A stretch of DNA of 43,927 nt. Origin: a virus. The position numbers and the translations under genes were made by a program. How positions within the stretch are numbered: position 1 is the first letter of the stretch; each line of letters begins with the position of its first letter. Positions 4,866 through 29,510 of this stretch are shown piece by piece. Under the pieces are notes generated by a model, which made no database searches, was not told where the DNA came from, and worked only from the letters and a program-made list of their open reading frames with translations. Location of the stretch: UHGV virus genome UHGV-1456322. The stretch is one strand, 5' to 3'.

Positions 4866-7334
4866 TTAGCAGAAGAAGAACGGGGATTCTAGCACTTGCC
4901 GGATGTCCAAAGTGCCCACCTCTGGCATGTCCAGGTCCGTCAAGTCTGCCCCGGCTGCTGCCGCTGCCCGAGTAATATCGCCAAGCAGGTCATTCTCTTC
5001 ATATAGACGCACAAACTGCTCACGGATGTGCCTATGCATAGTGTCGACGTCAGCTGCGTGAGTAGCCAGCGAGTCGTGAATAGGCACAATGTCCAACCCC
5101 TCCGCAGCGCAGAGCACCATCATCAAGTGCGTACTGTCCAGGCTATGCACAAAGTTTGGGGCAATCCCGGAGGCTGCCTTGCGCTTGTTACAAGTTTTGA
5201 AGTCCCGGTTGTGTACCAGTACCGCTGACAGGTTCATGCAGTCAATACGTACACGCACTTCTTCACGCTGCGTGTAACGGTTCATTACGAGCCCGCCCAG
5301 CGGCGTATACCACTGCAGGTGCTGGCTTGCCGGTACGCGTCTAGCGAGATTCTGCAAGTACCCCATAACTGCCGCAGCAGCGGGGTTTGCCTCCTCTATA
5401 GCGGCGCGCATACGCGGTGCCAGGTAGCACGACAGGTTCCACAGACTGTTAGTATCGGTACCCTCGTATCCCTCAGCGCAAGCGCCTTCAAAGATGTAGT
5501 CGCTGCAGCTACGCACCGTGGCGCTGTAGAAGTAGGTCATACTTGGGTGCTTGGTCATGCTGCGGGTGATTTCGTTCTCTCTCCAGTACGTGCTCTGGAT
5601 AACGAAATCCTCCTTGTCCAGGTCCAGTATCACCTTCTCATCCGTGCGGCGCTTCACGTCCATGTACAGGTCCGCTTTCTTGTCGTTACCTTCCCAGTAC
5701 AGGTTCGTCAGACGACCGCCTACAGGGTCTCTCAGGAGCGCTGAGAGGTGCTGTCCACCTGAGTTTGTGGCGTCCATAGCAACCGGAGTTCTGGAGATGT
5801 ACTCTTCTGGGCACGGAGAATCCAGAGCAGCCACCAGGTCGAGCACTGCTGCCAAGAAACACCACGGTGAATCGGCCTGCTTAAAAGCGTCCGAATCAAA
5901 TGGATTCTCTGCAACTGAGCGGACAACTGCCATATTTTTATCCACCCAATCTGCGCGGTCTTCGAATAGGGTTTTGTCATAACCAAAGCAAGTGGCGACA
6001 TGCACTTTAAGCCAGAACAACCCTCTCTCTCCAAGAGGTTTACCTCTACCGAATTCCAGCAGAGCCTTCTGCAAATCAGAACCCTGCGGGTGCAACGAGG
6101 ACTTGAAGTACAGGCGGTAGCGCCAGTCCACACAAGTCGGGAAGTACAGGGCTTTCTCATCTTTGAATTCCTCTGCCATCTCCAACGTAGTCAGAAGGCT
6201 GCGTAGTTGCGACACACGCTTACGGTCAGCACTGTACCACAGGGACATACGCGTCTTCCACTCACCGAAGCGGTCCAGTTCTTCTTCGGTGTAGTTCTCT
6301 TTTGGTACACCATCCAAGTACCACTCAGGCTTCGGCTCCGGTATTGAGCGGGGCATACCTATCCCAATACCCAGGGCCCGTGCTTCTTGCACCAGTTCCA
6401 GTATGCGCTTATTAATACGGTATGGGGTTTCCTGTGCCTTATTAAGCGCCTTCTTGATGCCATCCGCGGACTTAAATGCTTCCGCCACTTCACGCAGCCT
6501 GGAGCGGTCGATGTGCGAGTTATGGTACGTACCGCGGTTGTCGATAGGAGTAAGGTACCCACCATCCCACATAGTGGTGTGCTGCACCGGGGGGACCAGC
6601 ATAGGCGGCTTCATCGTTACAGTGTCGGCAGATTCCACCAGTTTCTGGAAGGCCCCCATAACGTCATCAGCCGGGTAGAGCATGCTCAGGTTCCCGCTAC
6701 CTGTCTTCCACTGGAACAAGCCAGTCTCAAACACCGCGGCACACAGCAGACGCCCTACGGAGATGTTCTGGGCATTGGTCCAAGGCTCGTGCCCATAGTG
6801 CACATTCTCGGCACTGGCACGGAGCGTACGCAGGATGTGCGTAGGGGACTTCGTACGGCGCTCTGTGAGATACTCATATACTCGGTCCATGTACGCTGGG
6901 GCTACGTTGCGTAACTGCAGAGCCAGTAGCTCTGACTGCACGTTCCGGCCCAGTGCGGACATTACCGCCTGCGCAGTCTGGCGGCGACTAGCAGACTCGC
7001 CGGGGGCGACGCTAAACGCTTCAAACATTGTGCACAGGCTCAGTGTGGTCAGGACATCCAAGGGGACTAAGCGCAGGAACCGGCGGTACTTACCACCAAT
7101 GCCCGGGACTTTGACGTTTCGCATCTCGTCGATAGCGGCAGCAGCCACCTCATATGCCGAGGTGAGCATACGCTGCGTCATCGGCAGGTTCATAATCCCG
7201 CCGTTCTGCAATGCGTCCGTAATCAGCTTACGTGCCCGCTCGATTCCGCGAATCTTATAGGTCTCTTCGAGCTCCAGCTGGCGTTTCACCAGTGCTTCCT
7301 CTGGTACTACAACCGTATTCAGGGCGCTAATCAT
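4866..7334 (-). CDS. DNA-directed RNA polymerase, single-subunit T7-like
   Basis: 822 aa; palm motifs DATNSGGQH (motif A-like) and PIHDSL (motif C HDS); size typical of T7/phiKMV RNAPs. Confidence 0.95.
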   Translation of the reverse strand: MISALNTVVVPEEALVKRQLELEETYKIRGIERARKLITDALQNGGIMNLPMTQRMLTSAYEVAAAAIDEMRNVKVPGIGGKYRRFLRLVPLDVLTTLSLCTMFEAFSVAPGESASRRQTAQAVMSALGRNVQSELLALQLRNVAPAYMDRVYEYLTERRTKSPTHILRTLRASAENVHYGHEPWTNAQNISVGRLLCAAVFETGLFQWKTGSGNLSMLYPADDVMGAFQKLVESADTVTMKPPMLVPPVQHTTMWDGGYLTPIDNRGTYHNSHIDRSRLREVAEAFKSADGIKKALNKAQETPYRINKRILELVQEARALGIGIGMPRSIPEPKPEWYLDGVPKENYTEEELDRFGEWKTRMSLWYSADRKRVSQLRSLLTTLEMAEEFKDEKALYFPTCVDWRYRLYFKSSLHPQGSDLQKALLEFGRGKPLGERGLFWLKVHVATCFGYDKTLFEDRADWVDKNMAVVRSVAENPFDSDAFKQADSPWCFLAAVLDLVAALDSPCPEEYISRTPVAMDATNSGGQHLSALLRDPVGGRLTNLYWEGNDKKADLYMDVKRRTDEKVILDLDKEDFVIQSTYWRENEITRSMTKHPSMTYFYSATVRSCSDYIFEGACAEGYEGTDTNSLWNLSCYLAPRMRAAIEEANPAAAAVMGYLQNLARRVPASQHLQWYTPLGGLVMNRYTQREEVRVRIDCMNLSAVLVHNRDFKTCNKRKAASGIAPNFVHSLDSTHLMMVLCAAEGLDIVPIHDSLATHAADVDTMHRHIREQFVRLYEENDLLGDITRAAAAAGADLTDLDMPEVGTLDIRQVLESPFFFC

Positions 7335-12171: not shown

Positions 12172-13152
12172 TTATTTAGTACGACCAACCCAACGACCAT
12201 CGTCGTCAAGCAGCATCGGAATTAACTGCGGGCAACCCTCGGTGATTACCAGCACACCCAGGATTGGTTTCTTGCGGGTGAGTCTGCCGTAAGCAAAGGC
12301 CATGCTCTTACGGTCAATCAGACACCCAGCATACGCACCAAAGTACAAAGCTGTTGAGCTAGCTGCATATTGCACCTCAAAGCGACCATGTTCGTGACCA
12401 AGGACAAGGCTGGTTCTTTCGTGGCTAGCGTTGAGCATGAAGTCACCCGACACTTGATGCTGGAATCTAACCGGGCCAAGTGGGGTATTGAGTACCCACG
12501 CGTCAGCCCAAGACCACGCCGGGGCACCATGTTCAGGGAAAAGTATATCTCGGTACTTCTTGATGAATTGCACTGGTAGCCCGTGAGCTTTCGCCCTGCG
12601 GTAAACCAGACTGCCGTGATTGGAATCGCAAACCAATAGGTTCGGGAACAGTTCATGTAGCTCCTCCAGTACGAGCTTAGCTTTCTCCAGCTCCACCCCG
12701 GCGCTATCCAGGTTCGGGTTACTTTCGTGGAATGATATAGCGTGGCCGTCCGTCTCGTCGCCTACCTGTACAACCATGTCCGGACAGTAGGCGTCTCGCA
12801 CAGATTCTAAGAAGGCCATAGCATCTACGTGCGTATAGGGGGCATGCAAATCCCCAACTACGAGAATACGGTGGCACACTTCCGGCACGAAGGTTTTGCC
12901 GATGTCATCAGTGGGACTGGGCTGTATGAGCTTTAGTGCCTCCTTCATGTGTGATATTGCCTTGCCCTTGCTCCCAGCGTGGTCTAGGAATATGCTGCGC
13001 CAGTACTTCACCATCTGTCGATACACCACCGGCTCGTCCAGTCCCGCCAGCTTATTATAGGCGGCAGCAGCATCCACGTTAGAGCTGTGCTTGCTCAAGA
13101 TATCTACGTGTTGCTCTTTGGTGAATAGCTTTATTGTGTTTAACTTAGGCAT
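12172..13152 (-). CDS. calcineurin-like metallophosphoesterase
   Basis: 326 aa; motifs VVGDLHAPY (D-x-H), VGDETDGH (GDxxD), DSNHGS, GHEH consistent with metallophosphatase fold. Confidence 0.75.
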   Translation of the reverse strand: MPKLNTIKLFTKEQHVDILSKHSSNVDAAAAYNKLAGLDEPVVYRQMVKYWRSIFLDHAGSKGKAISHMKEALKLIQPSPTDDIGKTFVPEVCHRILVVGDLHAPYTHVDAMAFLESVRDAYCPDMVVQVGDETDGHAISFHESNPNLDSAGVELEKAKLVLEELHELFPNLLVCDSNHGSLVYRRAKAHGLPVQFIKKYRDILFPEHGAPAWSWADAWVLNTPLGPVRFQHQVSGDFMLNASHERTSLVLGHEHGRFEVQYAASSTALYFGAYAGCLIDRKSMAFAYGRLTRKKPILGVLVITEGCPQLIPMLLDDDGRWVGRTK

Positions 13153-13579
13153 TCCAGCTCCTGTTACTTATTACGTCACTAATTACATGTACACCTACAC
13201 CGTACTTATTAGCAAAGTGTTGCCGCATACCTTTCTTGTATGGGATATAGTTATCCCTGATATCCTGCACAGCATCCCAAGTTAACTGCGCTTTTGGGTT
13301 CCTATCCCCACGCACATCTGGGTTCCTTCCGCGCTCTGCGCGGTCCCGCATATTATCCATATGCGTTCCCAATACTAAGTGCTTAGGGTTAATGCACCTG
13401 GGGTTATCGCAGGTATGTCTAACAGACAGGCCAGCCAGCGCCCTTATATCCAGCCCGTTATGCTCAGCACACACCACCCGATGCAGCAGCTCCAATCGCC
13501 TGGTCGGCTTATACCATGCCCGGCGGTATCCGTTCTTGTTAAGGCATTTGTTATACCCGTGGTCAATACACATCGACAT
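13145..13579 (-). CDS. HNH endonuclease (paralog 2)
   Basis: 144 aa; CIDHG ... HTCDNPRCINPKHL motif. Confidence 0.85.
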   Translation of the reverse strand: MSMCIDHGYNKCLNKNGYRRAWYKPTRRLELLHRVVCAEHNGLDIRALAGLSVRHTCDNPRCINPKHLVLGTHMDNMRDRAERGRNPDVRGDRNPKAQLTWDAVQDIRDNYIPYKKGMRQHFANKYGVGVHVISDVISNRSWNA

Positions 13580-13962: not shown

Positions 13963-16373
13963 TCTACCTTCTCCTTACTGTACATACTCGTACCCATCTC
14001 AGCCTCTGCTGGGAACGGGACCTCACCAATGATGCCGTAGTTAGGCCAGAGCTGGTGAATACGCTTAGGTGCATCCTCCATGCACTGCTTAACCAGCAGG
14101 CTCGCCTCACGTCCAACCTCCGGGTTGGCGCTGTCCAGATACAACGCATCGTGCACGTTCGTAATCAGGCACACCTGATTGTCGAACCAGTCACGGGCCA
14201 GGAGTGCACGCAGAACCATACCGGCAGCTACCGCCATCAGGAAGAATGCTTCCCCCTGGCACCAGTAGTTAGCCATCTCTGTTTCCTTGTAGTCCATTAC
14301 CTTCTGCTTACGCTGCCCAGGCACAACCTCTTTCCACTGCTCCTTCTGGCGGAAGCTATAGCGGGCACCTGCTGGGCTAGTCCACGTCCCGATGCGGTAG
14401 ACTCGGTAGCTGCCATCGTCAGCCTGCTCGCGGTACATGCGCCCGGCTGCCCCGGTGCGCTCTACTTCTTCCTTGATAACAGCGCGGAAGCCAATTGTTT
14501 GCGGGAACAGCGCAGCCTCGTTGTCCAAGAAAGCCTGTGCGAATTCCACCGTACATCCAGTAGCAAACGCAATCCCCTTAGCCGTAGCGCCATACTGGGC
14601 TGCGAAGCTAGGAGCCTTAATACCTGTACGCATTGCCTTCCAAAGCGGATGCAGCTCGTGCTTCTTGTTGTGGCAGCGCTCATACACTTCTTCATACGGC
14701 AGTTCCTCGCGGAAAGCTAGGCGGTAACAGTGCATATCCGTGCCGCCCTGCAGCAGCCCCAGTAGTTTGGTGTCCCCCGTATGCACACAGGACATAACCA
14801 CTTCCAGCGCCGAGTAGTCAACCTCAGTGATGCGTCCGTTATCCCCGAATCGGCTGGTGAATACCTGCTTCACCTTGGATTTAGCTACCCCATCCCCGTC
14901 TTCATCCGGTCGGGGTAGGTTCTGCAGGTTCGGGTTAGAGCTACTCAGGCGCCCGGTTACGGTGGCGCATGTATTCAGTCGGTGGTGTATGATGCCAGAA
15001 CCATCAGGACGCTCAGGGATTACGTACTGTAACATACCCTTCCGCTCTTTGACTTTACCCTCTGCGTCCAGAACTTCACGCAAGTAGTAAGTTCCAGTGT
15101 CCTTCTCCAGCGCCGCCAGCTCATTCACCAACTTACAGAACTCGAACCCTTGGCGGGCTAGCGCCTCCATTGCGTCAGTGCTGGTGCTGTATACTGGCGT
15201 ACCGTCCTGCATGGTGCGCGCCTGTCGGAACTCTCCACGCTCTGCATACTTCTCCCGGATAACTTCCGGCAGCTCCTGTATGTTCACTAGGCCCGGGCAG
15301 AAGTAAAGGTCATCTTCCCACCTTAGCTTCTCCTCCTCGGTGTCTAGGCGGAATACTTTGGGTAGCCCCTTGTTCTTACCCGCACGATATGTCACTACAC
15401 GCCACCATCCGCCTTCCGTTTGAAGTTCTTGCATGTGCGTGTCGTGTACAGGTATATAGGTGTGCGCACCCTCTCCGTCCTCGTACTTATAGAAGTCGGC
15501 CTTGACGTACTGCGGCGGGTCATATGGCACCTTCTTGCGGTACTTGATAGGCCCGCCGTACACCAGTGCTGACATATGGAAGTCCGACCCGAAGTTGAAA
15601 TCTAGCGTCTCTGGTAAGTCCTTCGGGATGTACTGCTGCAGTTCCTGCTTAATCTCACGGATGCGCTGCTCCTGCTCCTCCTGGTTCTTGCGTGCAATTG
15701 GCATATTAACGAACAGGCCGAACCATTCGCAGTACGCCCAAGCCAGCAAGGCATCCATACGCTCCCACACGTACTGCATCTGATTGCGCTGGGCGAACGT
15801 AGCGCACTGGCCGTAGAAGCACAGGGCCGTGTTCGGGATGTCCCCGTTAACCAGGTAGTCATGCAGCAGCATCGGGTCAATCTGGGAAGTTAGCACACCC
15901 TGCTCCCACAGAAGCTTAACCCCGTCTACTTTGTGCGTACCACCGTACTTAGGAGCCGTCTCGTCCAGCGACGGATACATGCTCTGAAAGTCCGAGGCGA
16001 TGTATTCCCCATGCATTGTGCAGAACACCCTGCCGCCGCGCTTGAGGAAGGCCTCAAACTGCTGCCGCTGGTACGTGAGAAACCAAGAAATCTCATAGGC
16101 TGCGTTGTGCGCAACAATAAGCCAGCAATCCTCTGGGATATGAAACCACCGGCAGCCTTCTGCTGCACTGTTTCCCGCCAAGAAATCAGCTCTTGAATTG
16201 AAGCGCACCGATTGAGTCGCGCCAACAGTGGTAGTACCGTCAGCCTGTGTCGTGTCGATACGCCATGCGGACTCAACAACATAGTTGTCAGGGCAGTATG
16301 GGCTTGCTTTAGAGCCGTAATATTCATGGTTTTGAACCTCTAAATCTATGTGCATTATACTGGTTGTTGACAA
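13959..16373 (-). CDS. DNA polymerase (family A, T7 gp5-like) with 3-5 exonuclease domain
   Basis: 804 aa; N-terminal HIDLE exo motif; pol motifs TGRLSSSNPNLQNLP, KAPSFAAQYG, VHDAL. Confidence 0.95.
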   Translation of the reverse strand: MSTTSIMHIDLEVQNHEYYGSKASPYCPDNYVVESAWRIDTTQADGTTTVGATQSVRFNSRADFLAGNSAAEGCRWFHIPEDCWLIVAHNAAYEISWFLTYQRQQFEAFLKRGGRVFCTMHGEYIASDFQSMYPSLDETAPKYGGTHKVDGVKLLWEQGVLTSQIDPMLLHDYLVNGDIPNTALCFYGQCATFAQRNQMQYVWERMDALLAWAYCEWFGLFVNMPIARKNQEEQEQRIREIKQELQQYIPKDLPETLDFNFGSDFHMSALVYGGPIKYRKKVPYDPPQYVKADFYKYEDGEGAHTYIPVHDTHMQELQTEGGWWRVVTYRAGKNKGLPKVFRLDTEEEKLRWEDDLYFCPGLVNIQELPEVIREKYAERGEFRQARTMQDGTPVYSTSTDAMEALARQGFEFCKLVNELAALEKDTGTYYLREVLDAEGKVKERKGMLQYVIPERPDGSGIIHHRLNTCATVTGRLSSSNPNLQNLPRPDEDGDGVAKSKVKQVFTSRFGDNGRITEVDYSALEVVMSCVHTGDTKLLGLLQGGTDMHCYRLAFREELPYEEVYERCHNKKHELHPLWKAMRTGIKAPSFAAQYGATAKGIAFATGCTVEFAQAFLDNEAALFPQTIGFRAVIKEEVERTGAAGRMYREQADDGSYRVYRIGTWTSPAGARYSFRQKEQWKEVVPGQRKQKVMDYKETEMANYWCQGEAFFLMAVAAGMVLRALLARDWFDNQVCLITNVHDALYLDSANPEVGREASLLVKQCMEDAPKRIHQLWPNYGIIGEVPFPAEAEMGTSMYSKEKVE

Positions 16374-16795
16374 GGGTACTCTCCTCTTAGCACTTTGTAT
16401 ATGACGTTAGTGTCTACGCCGTACTCGCGGGCCAGATGGGTAACGCCATAAATCCTCGGCGTATGCTTGGCACAGATATCTTCACAGTCTTTAGGAGTTA
16501 GGCGTTGGCGGCTAGGCACCCGCTTAGCACTACGGCCGCGCTCTGCTCGGTCCTTGTTGTTATCTGCTAGGGTTCCAGGTATTAGGTGCTCTGGGTTGAT
16601 GCACCGTGGGTTGTCGCAAGTGTGCCTGACAACTACTCCATCTAGAGCTTTAAGCGGCACCCCTAACTTCTCCGCCAGCACCAGCCTGTGCAGGTGTACG
16701 CAACGACTGCGAACTCCGGGTTTAGCTACCAAGGCGTAGCCTTCTGGGGATAGGCTGCGCGAACGTCCGTGGTCGATACACTCACTCATTTCCAT
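16355..16795 (-). CDS. HNH endonuclease (paralog 3)
   Basis: 146 aa; CIDHG ... HTCDNPRCINPEHL; sits between helicase and DNA polymerase, 3-prime end overlaps polymerase start. Confidence 0.85.
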   Translation of the reverse strand: MEMSECIDHGRSRSLSPEGYALVAKPGVRSRCVHLHRLVLAEKLGVPLKALDGVVVRHTCDNPRCINPEHLIPGTLADNNKDRAERGRSAKRVPSRQRLTPKDCEDICAKHTPRIYGVTHLAREYGVDTNVIYKVLRGEYPCQQPV

Positions 16796-16851: not shown

Positions 16852-18132
16852 TCACCGGTTAATCTGGCCCTCGTCAAAGCGGCAACGACCCGGCTCGAAT
16901 CCCACCTCGAATTGCAGTAGCGACTCTTTACCAGACAGTGCCATCTTGTTCTTCGGAGTACTGATACCACGGACGTTTTGCATGTGCGGCTGCTCGTTTC
17001 TGTCCAAGCATCCCATCATAATAGCCAAGTCCAGGGCACCCTGTACGCCAATCTTGCTCTGCTTCATAGCGGTGAGCGGCGGGAACAGCATGTTGTAACC
17101 TTCGAGTGAAAGCTGCATAGTGCCTACAATAGCGCAGTCGTTCTCGCACCCAAGTATGCGCAGCTCCTGCCATTTCGCCTCGAGGTTCTGGTGCTCGGTC
17201 TCCATAGTGCCGCCACGGATGTTCGCCACCATGTCGATGATGATTACCGCAGGGCGCATCTCCTCCATGAGCGTGGATATCTGCGCCATCGTCAAGGAGT
17301 GCGCAGCCTTAACACGAATCCGGTCAGCCCTGCCTACTTTCTTGAGGTAGGCTGGCACGAACTCTTGCTTACTGTGCCTGTCCTTAATCTCTGCCAGAGT
17401 CCAGTGCAGCGCCGCTTGATATACCCTCGGCACCGTACGCGTCGCCGGACCCTCGTTAACCAGCCAGAGAATCGGGCGGCCCCCGTATACTTCCGGCTGC
17501 TGCTGCATCTGCTCAGCAAAGTCCACAGCAATAGCAGCAAGCAGGCTAGTTTTACCAGAGTCCACAGGGGCAGCCACTGCGATGCAGTCCCCGCCGCGTA
17601 GGCCCCGGATGTTGCTAGAGAGTTGCTCGAACACGCCCAGTTTAAGACCGCCGCTCTCGTCAGTCGCGGCAAGTATTTCGTCAACACTACCGCTCTCCCA
17701 TTCAAGCAGCGAATCATGCACCGCAGCGCCGTCACCGTACTTGCGCTGTAGGTGCTTCATTTCCAGCAGGTAATCAATCTCCTCACCGTCTTGGTAGCGC
17801 TGCGTCAGCGCTGCTACCTCCCCGCTGTAGGCCAGCTCATTCAGGGTCTGGACAATCCCCACCACAGAATCCTGCGGCACGGCTTGTACTCCCCGCATAA
17901 GCTCGTCCATGATTACCCGCTCTTCCCGGGATAGGTGCCCCGCCCGGAGGTTGAGCATGCTCTGCATCGCATCCCATCGCACCTCCTGGTGCTCCGGGTA
18001 CGTGTTCCAGTACAGCCCCACCCAGTCCAGAAGGTTCGACGTATCCGGCGCAAGCATCGACTTAGGAATCTGCTCTCGCAGTCGGTTCCAAACCTTCTGC
18101 GTGCACATTGCCTTAACAACTATTAGGTCCAA
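16852..18132 (-). CDS. DNA helicase (DnaB-like, T7 gp4 helicase-domain-like)
   Basis: 426 aa; Walker A AAPVDSGKTS; position after primase. Confidence 0.85.
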   Translation of the reverse strand: MDLIVVKAMCTQKVWNRLREQIPKSMLAPDTSNLLDWVGLYWNTYPEHQEVRWDAMQSMLNLRAGHLSREERVIMDELMRGVQAVPQDSVVGIVQTLNELAYSGEVAALTQRYQDGEEIDYLLEMKHLQRKYGDGAAVHDSLLEWESGSVDEILAATDESGGLKLGVFEQLSSNIRGLRGGDCIAVAAPVDSGKTSLLAAIAVDFAEQMQQQPEVYGGRPILWLVNEGPATRTVPRVYQAALHWTLAEIKDRHSKQEFVPAYLKKVGRADRIRVKAAHSLTMAQISTLMEEMRPAVIIIDMVANIRGGTMETEHQNLEAKWQELRILGCENDCAIVGTMQLSLEGYNMLFPPLTAMKQSKIGVQGALDLAIMMGCLDRNEQPHMQNVRGISTPKNKMALSGKESLLQFEVGFEPGRCRFDEGQINR

Positions 18133-18913
18133 TTATAGCCTCCAGAATCTCTTTGATTTCTGCATCCTTCGGGTCCGCAGCGAAGTAATGCTCACGACAC
18201 TGCATGAACGGACGCAGTGCGCGGCGCGCCGCCGCTACTCCAGCGTGCCCTGCTGGGTCATTGTCCAGCATCAGAATCACTTCCGGGCGATTCTGTATCA
18301 GCCAAGCCCTCAGCGGCGTGGGCAAGCGTGTACCCAGCATAGCTATAGCCTGCACGTTCAACGCACTGTAGCTCGTAACTGCGTGCTGTATCTTCCGGGC
18401 TGAGAGTAAGTCCTCGGTGAGCACGACCTTTAGAGGTGCGGCCGCAGCTACAGCTGGTGCTACGGCAGGTGCCGCGACAGCGAAAGCTATTGGCTGGCCG
18501 TACATTACCCACTTCGGTTGCTGCCGAGCATGCACTGCACGGCCTAGGGCAGCGCTTCCGACACGGAAGATTATCCGCTGTTTCTCTTTGCTCCATTCTG
18601 CATCCTCCACCATTTCAGGCATGATTCCCTTTGTGGTCAGGAATCCGTAAATAAAACTCTGCGTTTCCGCAGGCGCTTGGCTAATGCAAATTGCATCTGC
18701 AGGTGCAGAGGGCTGCACCCTCGGCTCTTCCTGTAACCGTATGCGCTGGTACTGCTTGTGCTCCTTGCCCACCTGTTTGCAGCGGTGGCAATAGTATTCC
18801 CAGGCATCCGGGTTATTGTAGAGCACCCCGGCGGCGTCCCTGCCGCAGCACCGAAAGCGTGCCCTCTGCCCCACGGCCAGGCGCTTGCACGCTCTAAGCC
18901 AGGGCTGGTCCAT
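18113..18913 (-). CDS. DNA primase (zinc finger plus TOPRIM)
   Basis: 266 aa; N-terminal Cys4 (CCGRD...CHRC) and TOPRIM-like LTEDLLSA / MLDNDPAG. Confidence 0.8.
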   Translation of the reverse strand: MDQPWLRACKRLAVGQRARFRCCGRDAAGVLYNNPDAWEYYCHRCKQVGKEHKQYQRIRLQEEPRVQPSAPADAICISQAPAETQSFIYGFLTTKGIMPEMVEDAEWSKEKQRIIFRVGSAALGRAVHARQQPKWVMYGQPIAFAVAAPAVAPAVAAAAPLKVVLTEDLLSARKIQHAVTSYSALNVQAIAMLGTRLPTPLRAWLIQNRPEVILMLDNDPAGHAGVAAARRALRPFMQCREHYFAADPKDAEIKEILEAIIGPNSC

Positions 18914-19082
18914 CGGTAGCGTTACCCTCTGTGAGTAAAATTCGCTCCACTTTAACCACCGTAGTTAAATTGGTTAAATCATCTTTTATAGTGGCGCGAC
19001 CATCCTTTACGTTAATTAAGGTATAGGTTCTGTCCGTGAACAGAAAGTTCTCTGGGCTATTTTCTAGAGCTTTTACTTTCAT
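18894..19082 (-). CDS. hypothetical protein (62 aa)
   Basis: Minus ORF overlapping primase start by 20 nt. Confidence 0.35.
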   Translation of the reverse strand: MKVKALENSPENFLFTDRTYTLINVKDGRATIKDDLTNLTTVVKVERILLTEGNATDGPALA

Positions 19083-19540
19083 TATGCTTTCTCCTTACGT
19101 TTGATATCCATAGCCATGCGGCGCAGGTCGTGCGCCAACTGCAGGGCTGAATCAGGGTCGATGTTAATCCCAATCTCCATCTGTGCTCGAGTACTTCCCT
19201 TGCGAGGGATTACTCCGATGTACATTAATCCTTCCCCTTCACCGTTGTCCTTATCAAGGACTAGGCGCTGGTCATTTCCAGAATCGCGCTTGGAGTTCAC
19301 GTAGGTTACACTGGCTGGAACCGGCGGCAGCTCCTCGTCCTCGGGCTCTTGGTACAGTTCGAAGTTTGGCGCGTACCACGGACGGGGGTCCTCCTTATCT
19401 CGCACCCCATCCAACTGTAACCAGTAACCACCTGCGCCAACATCCGTTACAATGTAATAATTCTTAACGCCTTGAATGAGCCAGAACGTTTTGCTCTCAA
19501 CTGTACGCACAACTTTATCACCAACTTTAAAATTAGGCAT
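19082..19540 (-). CDS. hypothetical protein (152 aa)
   Basis: GGAGGG RBS; stop of upstream gene adjacent. Confidence 0.5.
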   Translation of the reverse strand: MPNFKVGDKVVRTVESKTFWLIQGVKNYYIVTDVGAGGYWLQLDGVRDKEDPRPWYAPNFELYQEPEDEELPPVPASVTYVNSKRDSGNDQRLVLDKDNGEGEGLMYIGVIPRKGSTRAQMEIGINIDPDSALQLAHDLRRMAMDIKRKEKA

Positions 19541-19542
19541 AA

Positions 19543-20589
19543 TTAACCCTCCACAATATTATCGTATCCACCCCAGTCTTCTACGACTCGGGTGCCTAAT
19601 TCAATCAGTTCTTCTTTAAAGCCGTAATCGGAGAACACCATTATGTACTCCGCCGCCTTCTCTGGATTCTCCTGCACCCAGCTAACCAGTTGTTGTTTAG
19701 AAAGCTGCGACACTACACGGAACGCTGCCAGCAATTGCGGGTCCTCGTCTGGCGGCATATCCCATGGCTGCCGTAAACTGAGCGTCGATGCTGAGAGCCA
19801 TTGGTCCGGCTCTACTACCTTCGGGTCCCGCTCAATCGGAAGGTGCGAGAACGTACCATCTTGCAGTACCCGCTCAAGCACTTTCCCCAGGATGTTCAGG
19901 TCCAGCACCTCATCCGGAGTGTGCTCGTGCATGTACCCTACACCGACGTTGGTGCACTCAGGGATGATGCCGACGAACTCGGCTGAGTCAGTATACACAC
20001 CCTTTTGTAAGTGCTGCTCCGTGCGTCCTAGGCGCTCTGCCAGAGTCTTGGCAAAGGTATCAGAGCAGCAGCGCATGTACCGCTGGTGCGTAATGATACC
20101 ATCTCCGCGGCGGTCAAAGCTAATCATCGCCTTGACACCAGTCCAAAATCCAGTGTCATCCTTGACCGATGCAGCGCTGCCTTCGCAGCCAACCTCCTCA
20201 TCCACGAAGAAGCAGTAGCGTCCGTGCACACCCCGCCGCAGCATCTCCAGCATCAGGTAGACACCGGCACCGCAGTCCGCCCCCAAGCAGTCAGCTTGTT
20301 GCGGATTCTTTACGAACAGCACGCCCTTGTTAGTGCAACCGACGTCCGGTGCAGCGCTGGTTGGGCGGGCCACCGTATCGAGATGAGACGTAAACGCTAC
20401 ATCACTTTGCTCTGAGTCCCCCACCAGCACGAAGTAGTTCCCGTGCTTATCCTTTACGTAGTGCATACCACTACCCAGCGCCTGCATAAGCAGCGGATCG
20501 AACCACTTAGTGCTTGCCCAGCTAGGCCGGTGCGTTCGCAGTATCTGCAAGAGCAGCTGCATATCAATCCCATGCGGATTCAAGAACAT
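19543..20589 (-). CDS. zinc metallopeptidase-like protein (clan MH, M20/M28-like)
   Basis: 348 aa; ordered motifs FTSHLDTV (H-x-D), GADCGAG (Asp), FFVDEEVG (E-E-x-G), YMHEHT (His) consistent with co-catalytic zinc exopeptidase fold; from memory, unverified. Confidence 0.55.
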   Translation of the reverse strand: MFLNPHGIDMQLLLQILRTHRPSWASTKWFDPLLMQALGSGMHYVKDKHGNYFVLVGDSEQSDVAFTSHLDTVARPTSAAPDVGCTNKGVLFVKNPQQADCLGADCGAGVYLMLEMLRRGVHGRYCFFVDEEVGCEGSAASVKDDTGFWTGVKAMISFDRRGDGIITHQRYMRCCSDTFAKTLAERLGRTEQHLQKGVYTDSAEFVGIIPECTNVGVGYMHEHTPDEVLDLNILGKVLERVLQDGTFSHLPIERDPKVVEPDQWLSASTLSLRQPWDMPPDEDPQLLAAFRVVSQLSKQQLVSWVQENPEKAAEYIMVFSDYGFKEELIELGTRVVEDWGGYDNIVEG

Positions 20590-22265
20590 TAAGCTGCCTC
20601 CTCTGCTTCTTCTTCATCTTCATCGTTTCCCAGGTACTTCTCTCCCAAGCAATCAGCTGCATGCTCAGTGAGAATTAACCCGTGCACTGGGTGTTCTTCT
20701 GCGTGTTCAATAAGCACTTGCCGGTCCTGTGCAAACACCAGTTCCTCTTGGTCGTGCACTACACCCTCTACTTCGCAGCGCTCTATGTCCTCGTCGTATA
20801 CATAGGCGTCGTGGTAATCAGACCAGGTGCAGCTCCAGCGATTATGCAGACCATCACGCCCAACTACGTACACAAAATCCCCTTCTTCTACGCAGCCGTC
20901 GCAGACCATATCACCATCTGCGGTCTCCTGCATGTCATCTACAGAGTAGCGACATTCACAGCAGCAGCACCCAGCAGACTCAGTGCCTACGTAGATGTAT
21001 CCTTCTGAGTCTTGTGCCTCGTACTCATAAGCATCACGGATTACAAAGGCATCATCCCCATACTCATCTACGCCGCACTGGCTGCTATCTAGGTATGGCA
21101 TCAGCACTGCGCCGTTGTATGTTGGGTGCGGTATTCGCGCCAGCATTACCCCTTCGAGACACTCAATGTTTTTGGTGTACCCATGCCCCCGCAGGATTGC
21201 ATCCGCAGCGTCGCCGTAAGCGCGGACGTACTCGTTAGTTTCTGTGTTAACGATTGCCCGTGCCTGCACTTCGAAGTCATCCCCGAACAGTTCCCCGGTG
21301 TACTGGATGAACAGGCGCAGCCCGTTGTCCGGCAGCCCGTGGCTGGTAGTAGCATACACCCGCACCGGGCTATGCTCAAATGAGTATCCACTCATGCAGC
21401 TACCCGGGCCATTCTCGTAGGAGTCGTACCATTCCTGCTCGGTCTTGCACAGGTACGTTGTAGGCTCTACGTTCATAGCCTTGAGGTCTTCGATAGCATC
21501 GCGGAAGTCTACGCCATTGCCGTAGTAGTTAGCGAGCCACTTACCTACGCGCATCTCCACACAACGGTACTCGGTAACTGCGGCGAAGTCCTTGTGCATC
21601 CGCGGCTGCCCCAGCATCACGATAGGCTCACCGTTGCGGAAACCAAAGCCCAATGGCACGGCGAATCTAGATACTATGAATCCGTGCAACTTCATGAGCA
21701 GCGCAGCTAAGTTGCCATCGCGGGCGTGGCGGCCGTAATCGTAGCCAGTGCATAAGCGGCGCTGCTGCTCTTCTGGTGCAAGCATGATGCGCTCAAATAA
21801 CTGCACGGCCTGCTTGTGCACCTTGTAACCTGTGAATTCTTCGACGCAAGCAACTACGCGCTCAACCACTACATCCTCGCCCTCATAGAAGTCGCGGCGG
21901 CGTTCCCAGAACTTGCTGTCTATGGTGATTCGCACCGGTTCAAAGAGTTCGCAGAAAGTTCCGGACCGGTACAGGTCCACCTTTTGCAACGGGCCGAGCG
22001 TCATCGTTGATTCGCGATACTCTGGGTGCAGTGCCCCGCCTATAGTCACCTCTAAGCCTGGAGTGTGCGCACTGACAGTGCGGAGACCCATAAGCACCTG
22101 CAGCGGACCCTCAGTGTGGGGATGGTCCTCCCCTTGCATTTGCAAGTCCTGGAACGGGGTCCAGTAATCACCGCTGGAATACATTGATTCTTTAATCGGC
22201 AGTGCGTTTGCACCTTCCGGTAATACGATTTTCCATTCGATAGGTGCTGTGTTAGTCTCTTGCAT
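20589..22265 (-). CDS. large uncharacterised early protein (~558 aa) with C-terminal Cys cluster and acidic tail
   Basis: Track ORF 20589..22646 trimmed to ATG at 22263-22265 (AGGGG RBS) because the 5-prime extension overlaps the 114-aa gene; contains GCCCCECR ... CDGC and terminal DEDEEEAEEAA. Confidence 0.5.
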   Translation of the reverse strand: MQETNTAPIEWKIVLPEGANALPIKESMYSSGDYWTPFQDLQMQGEDHPHTEGPLQVLMGLRTVSAHTPGLEVTIGGALHPEYRESTMTLGPLQKVDLYRSGTFCELFEPVRITIDSKFWERRRDFYEGEDVVVERVVACVEEFTGYKVHKQAVQLFERIMLAPEEQQRRLCTGYDYGRHARDGNLAALLMKLHGFIVSRFAVPLGFGFRNGEPIVMLGQPRMHKDFAAVTEYRCVEMRVGKWLANYYGNGVDFRDAIEDLKAMNVEPTTYLCKTEQEWYDSYENGPGSCMSGYSFEHSPVRVYATTSHGLPDNGLRLFIQYTGELFGDDFEVQARAIVNTETNEYVRAYGDAADAILRGHGYTKNIECLEGVMLARIPHPTYNGAVLMPYLDSSQCGVDEYGDDAFVIRDAYEYEAQDSEGYIYVGTESAGCCCCECRYSVDDMQETADGDMVCDGCVEEGDFVYVVGRDGLHNRWSCTWSDYHDAYVYDEDIERCEVEGVVHDQEELVFAQDRQVLIEHAEEHPVHGLILTEHAADCLGEKYLGNDEDEEEAEEAA

Positions 22266-22314
22266 TTTAGTTTGCCCCTGAATAGGTTCTTTGAGTTCAT
22301 CGCCAACCACTAAG

Positions 22315-22659
22315 TCAGCGTGCGTACCATGCAGCGATCTGCGCTTGCTTATAATATGCCCGTACTGCCGCCCTAAATCTTGTATATGCTCCACGATACC
22401 CGTACCGTAGCAGTGCTGCAACCACATCGAACTGAATGTGCTCTTGCAACTGCCGCGCGGCAGATTCTGTATACTCGCGATAGGTTGTGAGCACCACCGT
22501 AGAGTCCTGCCTACGAACACGGAGGAGTCTGCGCTCGACCGGTATGATTTGCTTGAGTTCATTAGGAACCTCTTTGAATGTTCCCCAAGGGCACCCGCAC
22601 TTGCCCTGCGTTTCCAGCAGCTTCCACATGAAAACAGCAGCTTCATCTACCGTCATCAT
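22315..22659 (-). CDS. hypothetical protein (114 aa)
   Basis: Start overlaps stop of HNH-AP2 gene; N-terminus MMTVDEAA resembles that of the upstream endonuclease. Confidence 0.5.
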   Translation of the reverse strand: MMTVDEAAVFMWKLLETQGKCGCPWGTFKEVPNELKQIIPVERRLLRVRRQDSTVVLTTYREYTESAARQLQEHIQFDVVAALLRYGYRGAYTRFRAAVRAYYKQAQIAAWYAR

Positions 22660-23144
22660 GTGAGCCTCCCAGTAGGAGTGGTTGGGTGCAGCCTAGCTTT
22701 AGCCGCTAAGTATGCTTCGCGGGCTTCATTTTCTGTGGGGTACACCCCAAGATACATCTGCTTCCCGTTTGCTGCTATGCGGGCCATGTATCCTCCTCGA
22801 AATGGGTAATACCCCTTCGCCTCTCGGTTGTGGTTATTGATTAGGGCAGTGGTCGCGCGGAGGTTTTCAGGACGATTATCATCCCGCTGCCCGTTGATAT
22901 GGTCAACTACTGGTGGAAAGTACCCGTTGGTAAGGGCGAAAACCACCCTATGAGCTTTTAAGTCCCGGCCCCGAAGCATTCCGTGGTAGTAGCCCCCGTT
23001 ACTCTTGCTTGTGAACGCTTCCGCTCCAACCGGTGTGCGTGCTCTAGGTGCTTTCTTCCAACGCAAACCAGTGGTCGAGGTGGCGTCGACGTAGAGATAT
23101 TCCTGAATCAAGCACAGCAGCGCTGTTTCGTCTACTGTGAGCAT
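22656..23144 (-). CDS. HNH homing endonuclease with AP2-type DNA-binding domain
   Basis: 162 aa; VVDHINGQRDDNRPENLR (HNH_3-like) followed by YLGVYPTENEAREAY (AP2-like); AAGGA RBS. Confidence 0.8.
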   Translation of the reverse strand: MLTVDETALLCLIQEYLYVDATSTTGLRWKKAPRARTPVGAEAFTSKSNGGYYHGMLRGRDLKAHRVVFALTNGYFPPVVDHINGQRDDNRPENLRATTALINNHNREAKGYYPFRGGYMARIAANGKQMYLGVYPTENEAREAYLAAKARLHPTTPTGRLT

Positions 23145-26945: not shown

Positions 26946-28901
26946 TTAGAGATACACCTCCCAGGCTACCTGGGATACGTCCGCTGCGTTACTGCTCCTA
27001 ATCACGAAGCTGTTTAGGTCCGGATTAGGTGTAGGCACATCCTGGTTCTGAGCTACGCCAGTAACCGTCAAGGCCCCAGCACTAGAGGGAAAGGTCAACC
27101 GCGTCAACTTAACCTCAGACACCCACTTGAAGGAGTTAGCTACGCTGCCAAAGTTTCCGCGTACACGGGCGTTGACTGTAGCCTCACCAGCCACCAGGGT
27201 TGCCACTCCACGGATACCCGTGTCATCCAGTAAGTTCATGGACATGCGCGGGGGCGTAGGTTGAACGGCGTAGCCGCTCAGCAATGCCCAGAACAAGCCG
27301 TGACCGGTCATGTCGTTATTGGACATAGATACCAGGGTAGGGTCAATGCCCATAGTCCCGTGGAAGTACACAGCTCTCCCGGTACCGTCGTAGCGCATGC
27401 TCACGCCATCAATCTCCAGGGATGTCTGCGCTGTCTCAGCTACGTCCTTAGTAACGAAGATGTGAGAGCTGGAGTTGCGGGTGTACCGACCACCCTTAAC
27501 ACGGCCCCCGTTGATTCGCACACCATTCTGGCTACCGTGAGCCTCGCAGTCATAAACGTAGCCACCGCCGTACGAGCAGTTAAAGCCAGAGCGTACGTTG
27601 TCATAAGCTAGGCACTCCCTATAGATAGGGAAGGCTACACCGGTGTTGGAGGCGAACCCGTCCATAGCTGCACGGTAAGCTCGACAGTTCAAGTACTCTA
27701 CCCCGTTAGTGCGCGCTTGGAACCCATCGTCAGCACTGTCGTACGAAACGCATCGAACGAACTTCACACGCTTACCAATGTCATGAGTATCAAACCCAGC
27801 TTGGGTTGTGTTGTAGGCTTCGCAGTTAACGCCTAAGAACTCGATAGGCTCTCCCCACTTGTCCCCGTCTGCGGTGCTCTGCCAGTTCAGAGAGATTGCG
27901 TGGCGTACGTCCATGGCGTGGATATCGTGTACTTCCGTGTCCTCTGAGCAGCCGAGCACTTCTACCCCATACCATCCGATGTTGTAGAAGTACGTACCCT
28001 TAACAGTACTATCTACGCAGTTATTGAACTTGATAGCACTACGCCCTTCTATATCAGAAGCCCCGGGGCGTTTGTTGCCAATAATAACCCCGTCCTGGAT
28101 GTGCAAGTCCGCGGCAAAGTTGGCAGAGATACCGATAGTAAAGAACCGGTTCAAATCGTCGTAGCCGAACTCGTTGATGTACGGGGATACTAAGGTTACG
28201 TTCTCCACCATTGTCGGGATACCTACTTCCGCGGCATCAGACAGGTAGTAGTTATAGTGCAGCGCTTTATCCAGCCGAATACTGGTGACGCCACCGGAGG
28301 TGCTAACCCCAACCACTTTCCTAATCTGGGAAATCTTTACACCGTACGTGTTAGGACCACCATCACACAGCTTGTTAGAGCGAAGATACAAGTACGTACC
28401 TTTTACCGCAGACAAAGCCCCGGCAGCCACCGTAATGACTTTGCTGCCCGCCGCGGCATCCGCTGCTAACGGTACGAACACCGAGGGTGCCGAGCCGATA
28501 ATATTAAGCACTTGACGTGCAACCGCAGCATCCGGTAGGATTCTTCCGGTATCGGTAAACTCTAGCGTAGAGTTGCTTTTGATGTTGAGCACACTCGTGG
28601 CCTGCAGGACCGTGTCCACAACCAGGTGCCTATTAGGTGCGCTCATGAACGTTACTATGCCCGCCCAATTGCTGAACCAGGAGCTGTATGCCGGACCCAC
28701 GAATTTACGGAGTAGATACCCACCAGGTACAGCAAACACAGTTCCGTTATCCACTACCGACGCGGCAGTAGTAAAGGTGAAGTCCCCACCGGCGCTGCCC
28801 AGCAGGCTAATCTTGTCCCGTACCTGAAAGTTTGGATATGCTACCATGCTCGCCAAGTCGGAGAATACCCGCTCTGGAGCTACTAATCTAATTAACGCCA
28901 T
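26946..28901 (-). CDS. tailspike protein, probable polysaccharide depolymerase (beta-helix)
   Basis: 651 aa; no T7 gp17-like N-terminal anchor; repetitive Gly/Asn/Val-rich segments typical of right-handed beta-helix tailspikes; last gene before genome-end region. Confidence 0.8.
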   Translation of the reverse strand: MALIRLVAPERVFSDLASMVAYPNFQVRDKISLLGSAGGDFTFTTAASVVDNGTVFAVPGGYLLRKFVGPAYSSWFSNWAGIVTFMSAPNRHLVVDTVLQATSVLNIKSNSTLEFTDTGRILPDAAVARQVLNIIGSAPSVFVPLAADAAAGSKVITVAAGALSAVKGTYLYLRSNKLCDGGPNTYGVKISQIRKVVGVSTSGGVTSIRLDKALHYNYYLSDAAEVGIPTMVENVTLVSPYINEFGYDDLNRFFTIGISANFAADLHIQDGVIIGNKRPGASDIEGRSAIKFNNCVDSTVKGTYFYNIGWYGVEVLGCSEDTEVHDIHAMDVRHAISLNWQSTADGDKWGEPIEFLGVNCEAYNTTQAGFDTHDIGKRVKFVRCVSYDSADDGFQARTNGVEYLNCRAYRAAMDGFASNTGVAFPIYRECLAYDNVRSGFNCSYGGGYVYDCEAHGSQNGVRINGGRVKGGRYTRNSSSHIFVTKDVAETAQTSLEIDGVSMRYDGTGRAVYFHGTMGIDPTLVSMSNNDMTGHGLFWALLSGYAVQPTPPRMSMNLLDDTGIRGVATLVAGEATVNARVRGNFGSVANSFKWVSEVKLTRLTFPSSAGALTVTGVAQNQDVPTPNPDLNSFVIRSSNAADVSQVAWEVYL

Positions 28902-29510
28902 TTATCCTCCGGTCTTAGTAAGAGCTGCCACTGCAGCATTTACATTCTTATACTGATTCCCAACGGCCTTGCTCTGCCACTGTCTGCGCTCCCATAGGCC
29001 CCAGCACACTTTATTGCGCTGCCCGTTAATATACTGAGAGCAGTCGAAGGTCCAGCGGTTGCTGCCCTTGTACACCCAACCGATGCCCGGGGATTTCTGC
29101 TGATACTTGCTAATATAGCGCCAGTCCAGTACGGCCTTTCCAGCTTCTGCGTAATTCAGGCTTTTGAGGTGCCGCTTCACAGCACTGCCGTTGAAGCCAG
29201 CTACGCCTACGTTATAAATGAAGTCTACAGACCCAACCAGAGCTACGTCAGAGAGCTGCATAGGAAGCCCGTCAAGGGCCTTTGCATGTGCCCCTGCTGA
29301 TTCTATCAGTTGCTTCTGACAATCGCTCAGCGTGGCTCTCTGGCCCATCTTGACGCCCTTTGTCTCCCCGTAGCAGATTGTAGGGACACCGGCACTATCC
29401 TTATAGGCGGTAAGGCTCAATCCCTCGTTGTGCTGAACCACCCCAGTAATAGCACCACCCAGCATAGTGGCCCCCGTGAGGGCCGCAATAACCTTAGTCC
29501 TTAAACTCAT
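28902..29510 (-). CDS. SAR endolysin (GH24 lysozyme with signal-anchor-release domain)
   Basis: 202 aa; N-terminal Gly/Ala-rich weakly hydrophobic segment VIAALTGATMLGGAITGVV; catalytic E-x8-D-x5-T (NEGLSLTAYKDSAGVPT). Confidence 0.85.
   Translation of the reverse strand: MSLRTKVIAALTGATMLGGAITGVVQHNEGLSLTAYKDSAGVPTICYGETKGVKMGQRATLSDCQKQLIESAGAHAKALDGLPMQLSDVALVGSVDFIYNVGVAGFNGSAVKRHLKSLNYAEAGKAVLDWRYISKYQQKSPGIGWVYKGSNRWTFDCSQYINGQRNKVCWGLWERRQWQSKAVGNQYKNVNAAVAALTKTGG

Follow-up and report, generated by a model that had tools for sequence, protein, structure and literature searches.

A lid-less clan MH hydrolase gene and its gp10-type partner gene in a KP34-like Klebsiella phage

Introduction

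The closest described relatives of the gene treated here are gene 11 of Klebsiella phage KP34 and its homologues in the genera Drulisvirus, Maculvirus and Phimunavirus (PHROG 4191), which occupy the same slot between genes 10 and 12, upstream of the primase gene, and form a family annotated from sequence only. The gene is listed in the annotation of the 2011 KP34 genome paper (PMC3082699), as a conserved core gene in the proposal of Kp34likevirus (PMC4411677), and in the core list of the PhiM1-like phages, where IPR007484 is cited (PMC6115819). Here we report a computational analysis of the orthologue of KP34 gp11 in the virus genome UHGV-1456322 and of the gene that immediately precedes it, the orthologue of KP34 gp10. 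The stretch of DNA that was analysed (the window) comprises 43,927 nucleotides of a KP34-like Drulisvirus (Autographiviridae, Slopekvirinae); relative to KP34 it is circularly permuted and reversed, and all of its large genes lie on the minus strand.

The peptidase identity of the gene product was already known, as orthologues with 98–99% identity are publicly labelled "peptidase" or "peptidase family M28". A preliminary description of the window had regarded such an enzyme as unusual in T7-like early regions, which does not hold for this group of phages: the gene is a core gene of Drulisvirus (KP34-like), Maculvirus (VP93-like) and Phimunavirus (PhiM1-like), and its annotation as a putative peptidase dates back to 2011. 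It is among the few conserved early genes with a recognizable enzymatic fold in therapeutic Klebsiella podoviruses. The result added here is the pairing of the gene with a partner gene, which was not found described in the literature searched.

Identification and fold of the peptidase

The gene is the sole long open reading frame (ORF) in its region:

19543..20589, minus strand: peptidase ORF, orthologue of KP34 gp11; 348 amino acids plus stop codon, ATG start

The ORF shares 94% DNA identity with that of KP34 (locus KP-KP34p11, 'peptidase'). When the whole ORF was searched with megablast, 229 of the 242 phage records matched were Klebsiella phages, mostly with 90–98% identity and more than 200 of them with 94–98%, and the protein identity to other Klebsiella phages reached up to 99% (tblastn). 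GenBank labels elsewhere read 'peptidase family M28 protein' and 'peptidase M28-domain containing/Zn-dependent exopeptidase superfamily protein'. Relatives were also detected by tblastn in phages of Vibrio, Pectobacterium, Shigella/Escherichia, Bradyrhizobium, Thermus, Bacillus and Cellulophaga, and an exhaustive profile search recovered 8078 representatives of the family (50% clusters) at E ≤ 1e-3, 2582 of them at E ≤ 1e-30.

Peptidase_M28 (PF04389) was the single Pfam family to pass its gathering threshold, by a small margin (24.1 bits versus 21.3; E 3.5e-5) and over residues 55–164 only, which correspond to positions 6–98 of the 193-position model. The scores for M20 (PF01546; 16.0 bits versus a cut-off of 24.6), M42 (PF05343; 10.8 bits versus 23.2) and the PepT-like model of NCBIfam (18.6 versus 274) remained below threshold. 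The match to PHROG 4191 ('peptidase') covered the full length of the protein (E 4e-158; residues 6–347 on profile positions 1–342 of 342). Apart from M28, M20, M42 and peptidase families, the Pfam, NCBIfam and PHROG scans yielded nothing, and the only matches in BFVD were phage proteins annotated as M28 or as putative peptidases.

When compared with the sequences in the PDB, gp11 by itself weakly matched the PepT-like chain 3gb0. A profile built from 23 homologues matched 3gb0 and 3rza at E values of about 1e-13 and TET1 at 7e-8, and aligned the ligand motifs FTSH(L/M)DTV, LGAD(C/D)xAG, (D/G)EExG and VGYxxxHTxxE. The AlphaFold2 model based on the 23-homologue alignment had a mean predicted local distance difference test score (pLDDT) of 81, with residues 10–250 mostly above 90. 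A Foldseek search of the PDB with this model gave 256 matches at E ≤ 1e-3, and all 50 among the matches listed belong to clan MH. The nearest solved relatives are PepT-like enzymes, TET/M42 and leucine aminopeptidases; M28 structures were not the nearest ones.

These results confirm that gp11 is a clan MH enzyme with the alpha/beta aminopeptidase-type fold common to M20, M28 and M42. Searches of the kind proposed in the preliminary description thus returned a significant clan MH match, and its assignment to an exopeptidase-like protein of the M20/M28 clan is supported by the M28 score above the gathering threshold, PHROG 4191, the PDB profile matches and the Foldseek result. In sequence and structure, gp11 is closest to the PepT-like M20B and the M42 aminopeptidases, and it is M28-like in architecture. 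Judged by these relatives, its chemistry would be that of an exopeptidase.

Active site and domain architecture

The catalytic domain and its predicted active-site residues are located as follows:

19840..20568, minus strand: clan MH catalytic domain, residues ~8–250
20377..20385, minus strand: H69-L70-D71, predicted first metal-ligand His and supporting Asp of HxD; aligns to FTSHMDTV of 3gb0
20275..20283, minus strand: G103-A104-D105 with the predicted bridging Asp; aligns to LGADDKAG (3gb0, 3rza) and GLDDRFG (TET1)
20188-20202, minus strand: DEEVG motif, D130–G134
20194..20199, minus strand: E131, predicted general base, and E132, predicted metal ligand; align to GEE/QEE of PepT-like enzymes and TET1
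20110..20115, minus strand: D159, predicted fourth ligand, and the family-specific R160; D159 aligns to the Asp at the ligand position of TET1
19921..19923, minus strand: H223, predicted distal His ligand, in YMHEHT; aligns to the His of VGYEEIHTTNE in 3gb0

The motifs HLD, GAD and DEE-G and the distal His named in the preliminary description are all present in the translation and in the order given there; D159 (codon 20113-20115, in ISFDRRG) had been missing from that list. H223, and not H221, was assigned as the distal ligand because H221 is not conserved. The protein thus carries the five ligands of clan MH, in the order His, Asp (bridging), Glu, Asp/Glu and His, together with a general-base Glu that precedes the ligand Glu. 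If the canon of the Aeromonas aminopeptidase and the M20 enzymes applies, as we assume, metal 1 would be bound by D105, E132 and H223 and metal 2 by H69, D105 and D159, with D105 bridging the metals and E131 presumably serving as the general base. The centre is predicted to be a co-catalytic two-metal site, probably a two-zinc site, in which E131 would activate a metal-bound water for attack on a terminal amide bond.

Conservation of these residues was assessed in the 23 homologues and in a set of 268 sequences that consisted of the query, 120 word-index matches and 147 representatives from the exhaustive search (median identity 38%). H69, D71, D105, E131, E132, D159 and H223 are invariant in the 23 homologues, which range down to 34% identity. 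In the larger set, D105, E131, E132, D159 and H223 are present in all 268 sequences, and H69 and D71 in 267, the remaining row being an alignment gap. The ligands and general base are therefore conserved as the preliminary description had anticipated for a true member of the clan. R160 (267 of the 268) belongs to a group of family-specific residues that are as constant as the ligands (N51, R160, Q169, S176, T200, D201, N214 and E227). Such invariance of the five ligand positions and the general base at about 38% identity is typical of a functional dinuclear hydrolase, and neither a decayed site nor one with a single zinc would show it; we therefore attach hardly any credence to the view that gp11 is a catalytically dead scaffold or a mono-zinc enzyme resembling glutaminyl cyclase.

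The stretch from D159 to H223 comprises just 63 residues; its equivalent in 3gb0 has about 150 and includes the lid/dimerization domain. The catalytic core is therefore lid-less, and gp11 has a single catalytic domain without the lid/dimerization domain of M20 and M42; neither the model nor the alignment contains an inserted domain corresponding to the PDZ-like oligomerization domain of M42. The remainder of the protein is formed by two regions:

19744..19839, minus strand: linker, residues 251–282, presumed flexible; low confidence, with pLDDT <50 at residues 263–280
19546..19743, minus strand: C-terminal helical module, residues 283–348, signature ..L..V..NP...A..L...G.....L; low model confidence

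In homologues, the counterpart of the linker differs widely in length and consists of low-complexity sequence. The signature of the helical module is recognizable across the short-type homologues (313–368 amino acids), even behind low-complexity linkers of 100–200 amino acids, and a reasonable guess is that it serves as a tethered interaction module.

The architecture also bears on the possibility that gp11 is an amidohydrolase or deacylase comparable to DapE, ArgE, carboxypeptidase G2 or allantoate amidohydrolase, whose substrate would not be a peptide but either a small metabolite or a nucleotide or cofactor that carries an amino-acid modification and is made or bound by the partner. We consider this very unlikely: the known M20 deacylases need the lid/dimerization domain that gp11 lacks (PMC4012986), the NCBIfam equivalogs score far below their cut-offs, and the partner has no recognizable enzyme family.

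Pairing with a partner gene

The start codon of the peptidase gene overlaps with the stop codon of the gene upstream, which is shared with KP34:

20587..20600, minus strand: translational coupling signal, read from the sequence: GAGG, 7 nt, and an ATG sharing its A with the TAA of gp10 (TAATG)
20589..22562, minus strand: partner gene, orthologue of KP34 gp10; 657 amino acids from the KP34-type start; PHROG 6980, unknown function

Because of this overlap, the upstream gene was examined in relatives of the peptidase. The forward survey comprised 43 distant viral contigs found with the peptidase alignment and three loci fetched otherwise. Nearly all short-type peptidases with enough upstream DNA are preceded by an ORF of 466–713 amino acids on the same strand, usually at a spacing of -1, -4 or -8 nt (overlaps of 1–34 nt). 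In a BLAST single-linkage clustering, 33 of 36 upstream ORFs fell into one cluster that includes KP34 gp10, and a profile of the gp10 group aligned with 21 diverse upstream ORFs (hhalign) at 98.3% probability and E 1.4e-14, over a region that covers SCM, a conserved Arg, PYLD and the CxxC...CxxC ribbon. The relationship is a distant one. Pairwise BLAST of gp10 against the upstream proteins of loci L006 and L003 at first looked negative, and strict iteration with hidden Markov models did not link the partner groups, which are connected via intermediates and by profile–profile comparison only. The partner in the 121-kb Bradyrhizobium phage BDU-MI-1 independently matches PHROG 6980 of gp10, PhiM1 gp09 aligns with gp10 over the same core, and the partner is present also in Vibrio Maculvirus.

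Long-type peptidases (375–440 amino acids; contigs of 150–460 kb) have no upstream partner. They are followed, about 220 nt downstream, by an ORF of about 320 amino acids with the motifs WNSCMRY, RxRALLW, DRIY and YPYLDTF and an acidic tail, and these downstream ORFs aligned with the B group of partners (hhalign) at 95.8% probability and E 6.7e-9. In Cellulophaga phage Calle_1, the partner lies directly downstream of the peptidase gene and matches the long-type partner group at E 4e-33.

In total, the forward count gave a partner in 78 of 87 peptidase loci, with those of Thermus phage P74-26, L083 and L088 as the genuine exceptions. A reciprocal scan of viral contigs with the partner alignment identified 79 new loci, 72 of which have a peptidase gene immediately downstream. 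Five of the seven others break off no more than 137 nt from the partner gene, so that the peptidase gene is present in 72 of the 74 loci where the sequence extends far enough to show it, although the loci in all of these counts are not phylogenetically independent. Peptidase and partner are thus coupled as a near-obligate gene pair. The pairs occur in podoviruses, in phages of 50–120 kb and in jumbo-sized contigs, with hosts from Proteobacteria to Bacteroidota. That the pair is kept although the proteins are barely alignable and the gene order changes makes a functional connection more plausible than synteny alone.

This pattern has to be weighed against the simpler idea of a stand-alone aminopeptidase of broad specificity that recycles host peptides to amino acids, next to a gp10-like gene that is unrelated and merely syntenic. 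Single-domain M28 aminopeptidases are active alone, the nearest solved relatives of gp11 are amino- and tripeptidases, and some homologues have no partner nearby. Yet several cytoplasmic aminopeptidases are already encoded by the host, the adjacency with overlapping stop and start codons is kept at 32–45% peptidase identity between loci whose partners can barely be aligned, and synteny by itself is hard to credit for a pairing that extends across genomes of 43 kb to 460 kb and from Proteobacteria to Bacteroidota. On balance, a stand-alone enzyme appears rather unlikely to us.

The neighbours downstream of the peptidase gene, a KP34 gp12-like ORF or an ORF of about 300 amino acids, were considered as further members of the module and rejected, being not conserved across the short-type groups. 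The conserved ORF of about 300 amino acids, 120–240 nt past the peptidase gene, is found in a marine and environmental clade of 45–60 kb (L050, L052, L056, L058, L064 and others) and resembles, by eye only, a tyrosine-recombinase/integrase-type protein. Several loci are arranged in individual ways: one 150-kb contig (IMGVR_UViG_3300042878_001826) encodes two peptidase paralogues (L055 and L083), of which L083 lacks an adjacent partner; one peptidase gene (L086) is flanked by two partner-like ORFs; and in Calle_1 (L170) an annotated tRNA-Glu and a phage tmRNA (663-734, 2199-2558) are located a few kb upstream of the pair.

Features of the partner protein

The conserved regions of the partner in the window are:

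21063..21575, minus strand: conserved core, residues ~330–500
21393-21401 (SCM), 21258-21260 (R435) and 21087-21098 (PYLD), minus strand: core motifs, invariant columns in alignment A2
20892..20969, minus strand: CxxC...CxxC zinc-ribbon region, C532–C557, with conserved cysteines
20592..20645, minus strand: acidic C-terminal tail (GEKYLGNDEDEEEAEEAA)

Of 126 unique partner sequences, 124 contain SCM and 121 contain PY[LIMVF]D; the zinc ribbon is missing from the short 'C-type' partners. Searches of Pfam, PHROG, PADLOC and PDB sequences with gp10 and at least 20 diverse partners gave nothing above noise, save weak LIM/ZZ-like matches of the zinc ribbon and PHROG 6980/13313 ('unknown function'). 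In protein databases, searches for distant gp10 homologues with the single sequence or with alignment A2 returned Drulisvirus orthologues alone; the diverse partner sequences were taken from viral contigs.

Where the partner gene starts is ambiguous. Its reading frame stays open to 22646 (685 codons), database calls for gp10 are 557, 610–612 and 655 amino acids, with a KP34-type product of 655–657 amino acids, and the upstream part overlaps, in another frame, with a gp9-like ORF of 114 amino acids (PHROG 6167; 22315-22659, minus strand).

Across the partner groups, 6–9 of the last 20 residues are D or E, versus 17% overall, and some of the codons of this acidic tail lie within the purine-rich ribosome-binding site that precedes the peptidase gene. 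The tail is of interest with regard to a reading in which the partner is the substrate and the peptidase trims a terminus of gp10, for instance the acidic C-terminal tail or the N-terminus, to activate or regulate it. We judge this quite unlikely, as an enzyme and its substrate need not be made in stoichiometric amounts, the tail overlaps in part with the ribosome-binding site, and the differing lengths of gp10 in the databases reflect the choice of start codon and not processing, of which there is no direct sign.

Genome setting

In the direction of transcription, the block reads HNH endonuclease, gp9-like, gp10-like, peptidase, gp12-like, a small ORF, primase, helicase, HNH endonuclease and DNA polymerase. 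Its landmarks and those of the remaining window are:

22656-23144, minus strand: HNH endonuclease
19082-19540, minus strand: gp12-like ORF
18113-18913, minus strand: primase
16852-18132, minus strand: helicase
4866-7334, minus strand: RNA polymerase
28902-29510, minus strand: endolysin of the Phage_lysozyme (muramidase) family, in the late region
26946-28901, minus strand: tailspike/depolymerase, K1 capsule lyase; K1-lyase_N, Rider and C domains matched

The early/middle placement given in the preliminary description is correct, the gene being located upstream of the primase, helicase and DNA polymerase genes like gene 11 of KP34. The protein is probably expressed from the early/DNA-metabolism operon and would be cytoplasmic.

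The setting leaves next to no room for a peptidoglycan amidase or peptidase acting in lysis or entry, a target that the preliminary description had entertained. The one point in its favour is a general one: cell-wall hydrolases are common among phage proteins, and some of these depend on zinc. However, the gp11 gene lies in the early/replication block and outside the lysis cassette, the phage has a separate endolysin of the lysozyme type, which makes a peptidoglycan role of gp11 unlikely, inspection of the N-terminus revealed neither an obvious signal peptide nor an obvious transmembrane segment, and gp11 had no match to Amidase_2/3, M15, M23 or other families of cell-wall hydrolases in the Pfam, NCBIfam and PHROG scans. 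The comparison with the Amidase_2-type lysozyme of T7 is inapplicable, because the lysin of the window belongs to Phage_lysozyme.

Three ORFs of the window (22656-23144, 16355-16795 and 13145-13579, all on the minus strand) encode homing endonucleases of the HNH_3 type. The first of these lies just upstream of the block of gp9, gp10 and gp11, and KP34 has no such ORF at the equivalent place. The K1-specific lyase domains of the tailspike suggest that the phage targets K1-type Klebsiella. Between about 24000 and 28000 the GC content falls to about 0.50 and the AT skew switches sign, which is consistent with the KP34-like genome ends and the early-promoter region being inside the circularly permuted window.

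Discussion

We favour, with a probability of roughly 0.6, the reading that gp11 is a clan MH dinuclear-metal hydrolase of the exopeptidase type that works with a co-translated gp10-type partner. Because partner homologues are found alongside the peptidase in phages of widely different kinds, gp10 and gp11 most likely act together, in physical or functional cooperation. In such a scheme, gp11 would supply the dinuclear catalytic centre and gp10 would provide substrate recognition or targeting, standing in for the missing lid, and the target would be the terminus of a peptide or protein that is cleaved exopeptidase-style inside the infected cell. A precedent for lid dependence is provided by DapE enzymes, which are inactive when their dimerization domain is deleted (PMC4012986).

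Several points weigh against this reading. Adjacency could partly reflect shared operon ancestry instead of physical interaction. The peptidases of Thermus phage P74-26 (L009), L083 and L088 have no partner nearby, and two partner loci (L160 and L167), each of which continues for about 4.8 kb downstream, have no detectable peptidase gene. Inspection of the ten longest or atypical representatives of the family revealed no fusion of peptidase and partner. M28 aminopeptidases function without a lid or a partner, so the chemistry as such needs no gp10. The metal of gp11 (Zn, Co or Mn) is a prediction, and the AlphaFold2 model of gp10, which was built from a shallow alignment (relatives with ≥80% identity) and has a mean pLDDT of 33, lends no support to binding at the active site. 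Finally, the literature on this phage family treats the gene in annotation and core-gene tables only, and no biochemical, genetic or transcriptomic statement was found in it. As for L160 and L167, it is possible that their partners act alone or with a different enzyme.

More tentatively, and with a clear lean to the negative, the lid-less clan MH hydrolase and its SCM...R...PY[LIMV]D partner might together constitute an undescribed two-component enzyme system. The partner would then represent a new fold or domain that presents the terminus of a host or phage protein, or might itself be an enzyme, and the module might perform an unrecognized step of host takeover or modification early in infection. 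With regard to host defence, neither gp11 nor gp10 matched the anti-phage defence models of PADLOC at E ≤ 0.01, and no anti-defence data on gp11 were found in the literature searched.

The coupling to a partner provides a concrete handle on this gene, as it could allow a function to be assigned to two abundant families of phage proteins together, and the pair could reveal how an M20-like catalytic core operates without a lid.

Comparison with known systems

The protein of the window shows no difference of substance from KP34 gp11. Compared with the PepT-like M20B enzymes (3gb0, 3rza, 1vix), which have a lid of about 110–150 residues between the fourth and fifth ligands, gp11 lacks the lid and has an unrelated C-terminal helical module. 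The M42 enzymes of the TET/FrvX type (2cf4, 1ylo, 3cpx) possess a PDZ-like dimerization domain that is absent from gp11, and gp11 gives no sign of a dodecameric assembly. The M28 aminopeptidases (Aeromonas AAP 1rtq, Streptomyces SGAP 1cp7, LapA) share with gp11 the lid-less single domain and the order of the ligands. The engineered lid-less domains of DapE (4h2k, 4onw, 4op4) are artificial and inactive (PMC4012986), whereas the gp11 family is natural and huge, and its active site is under strong purifying selection, which argues that substrate binding has been solved in another way.

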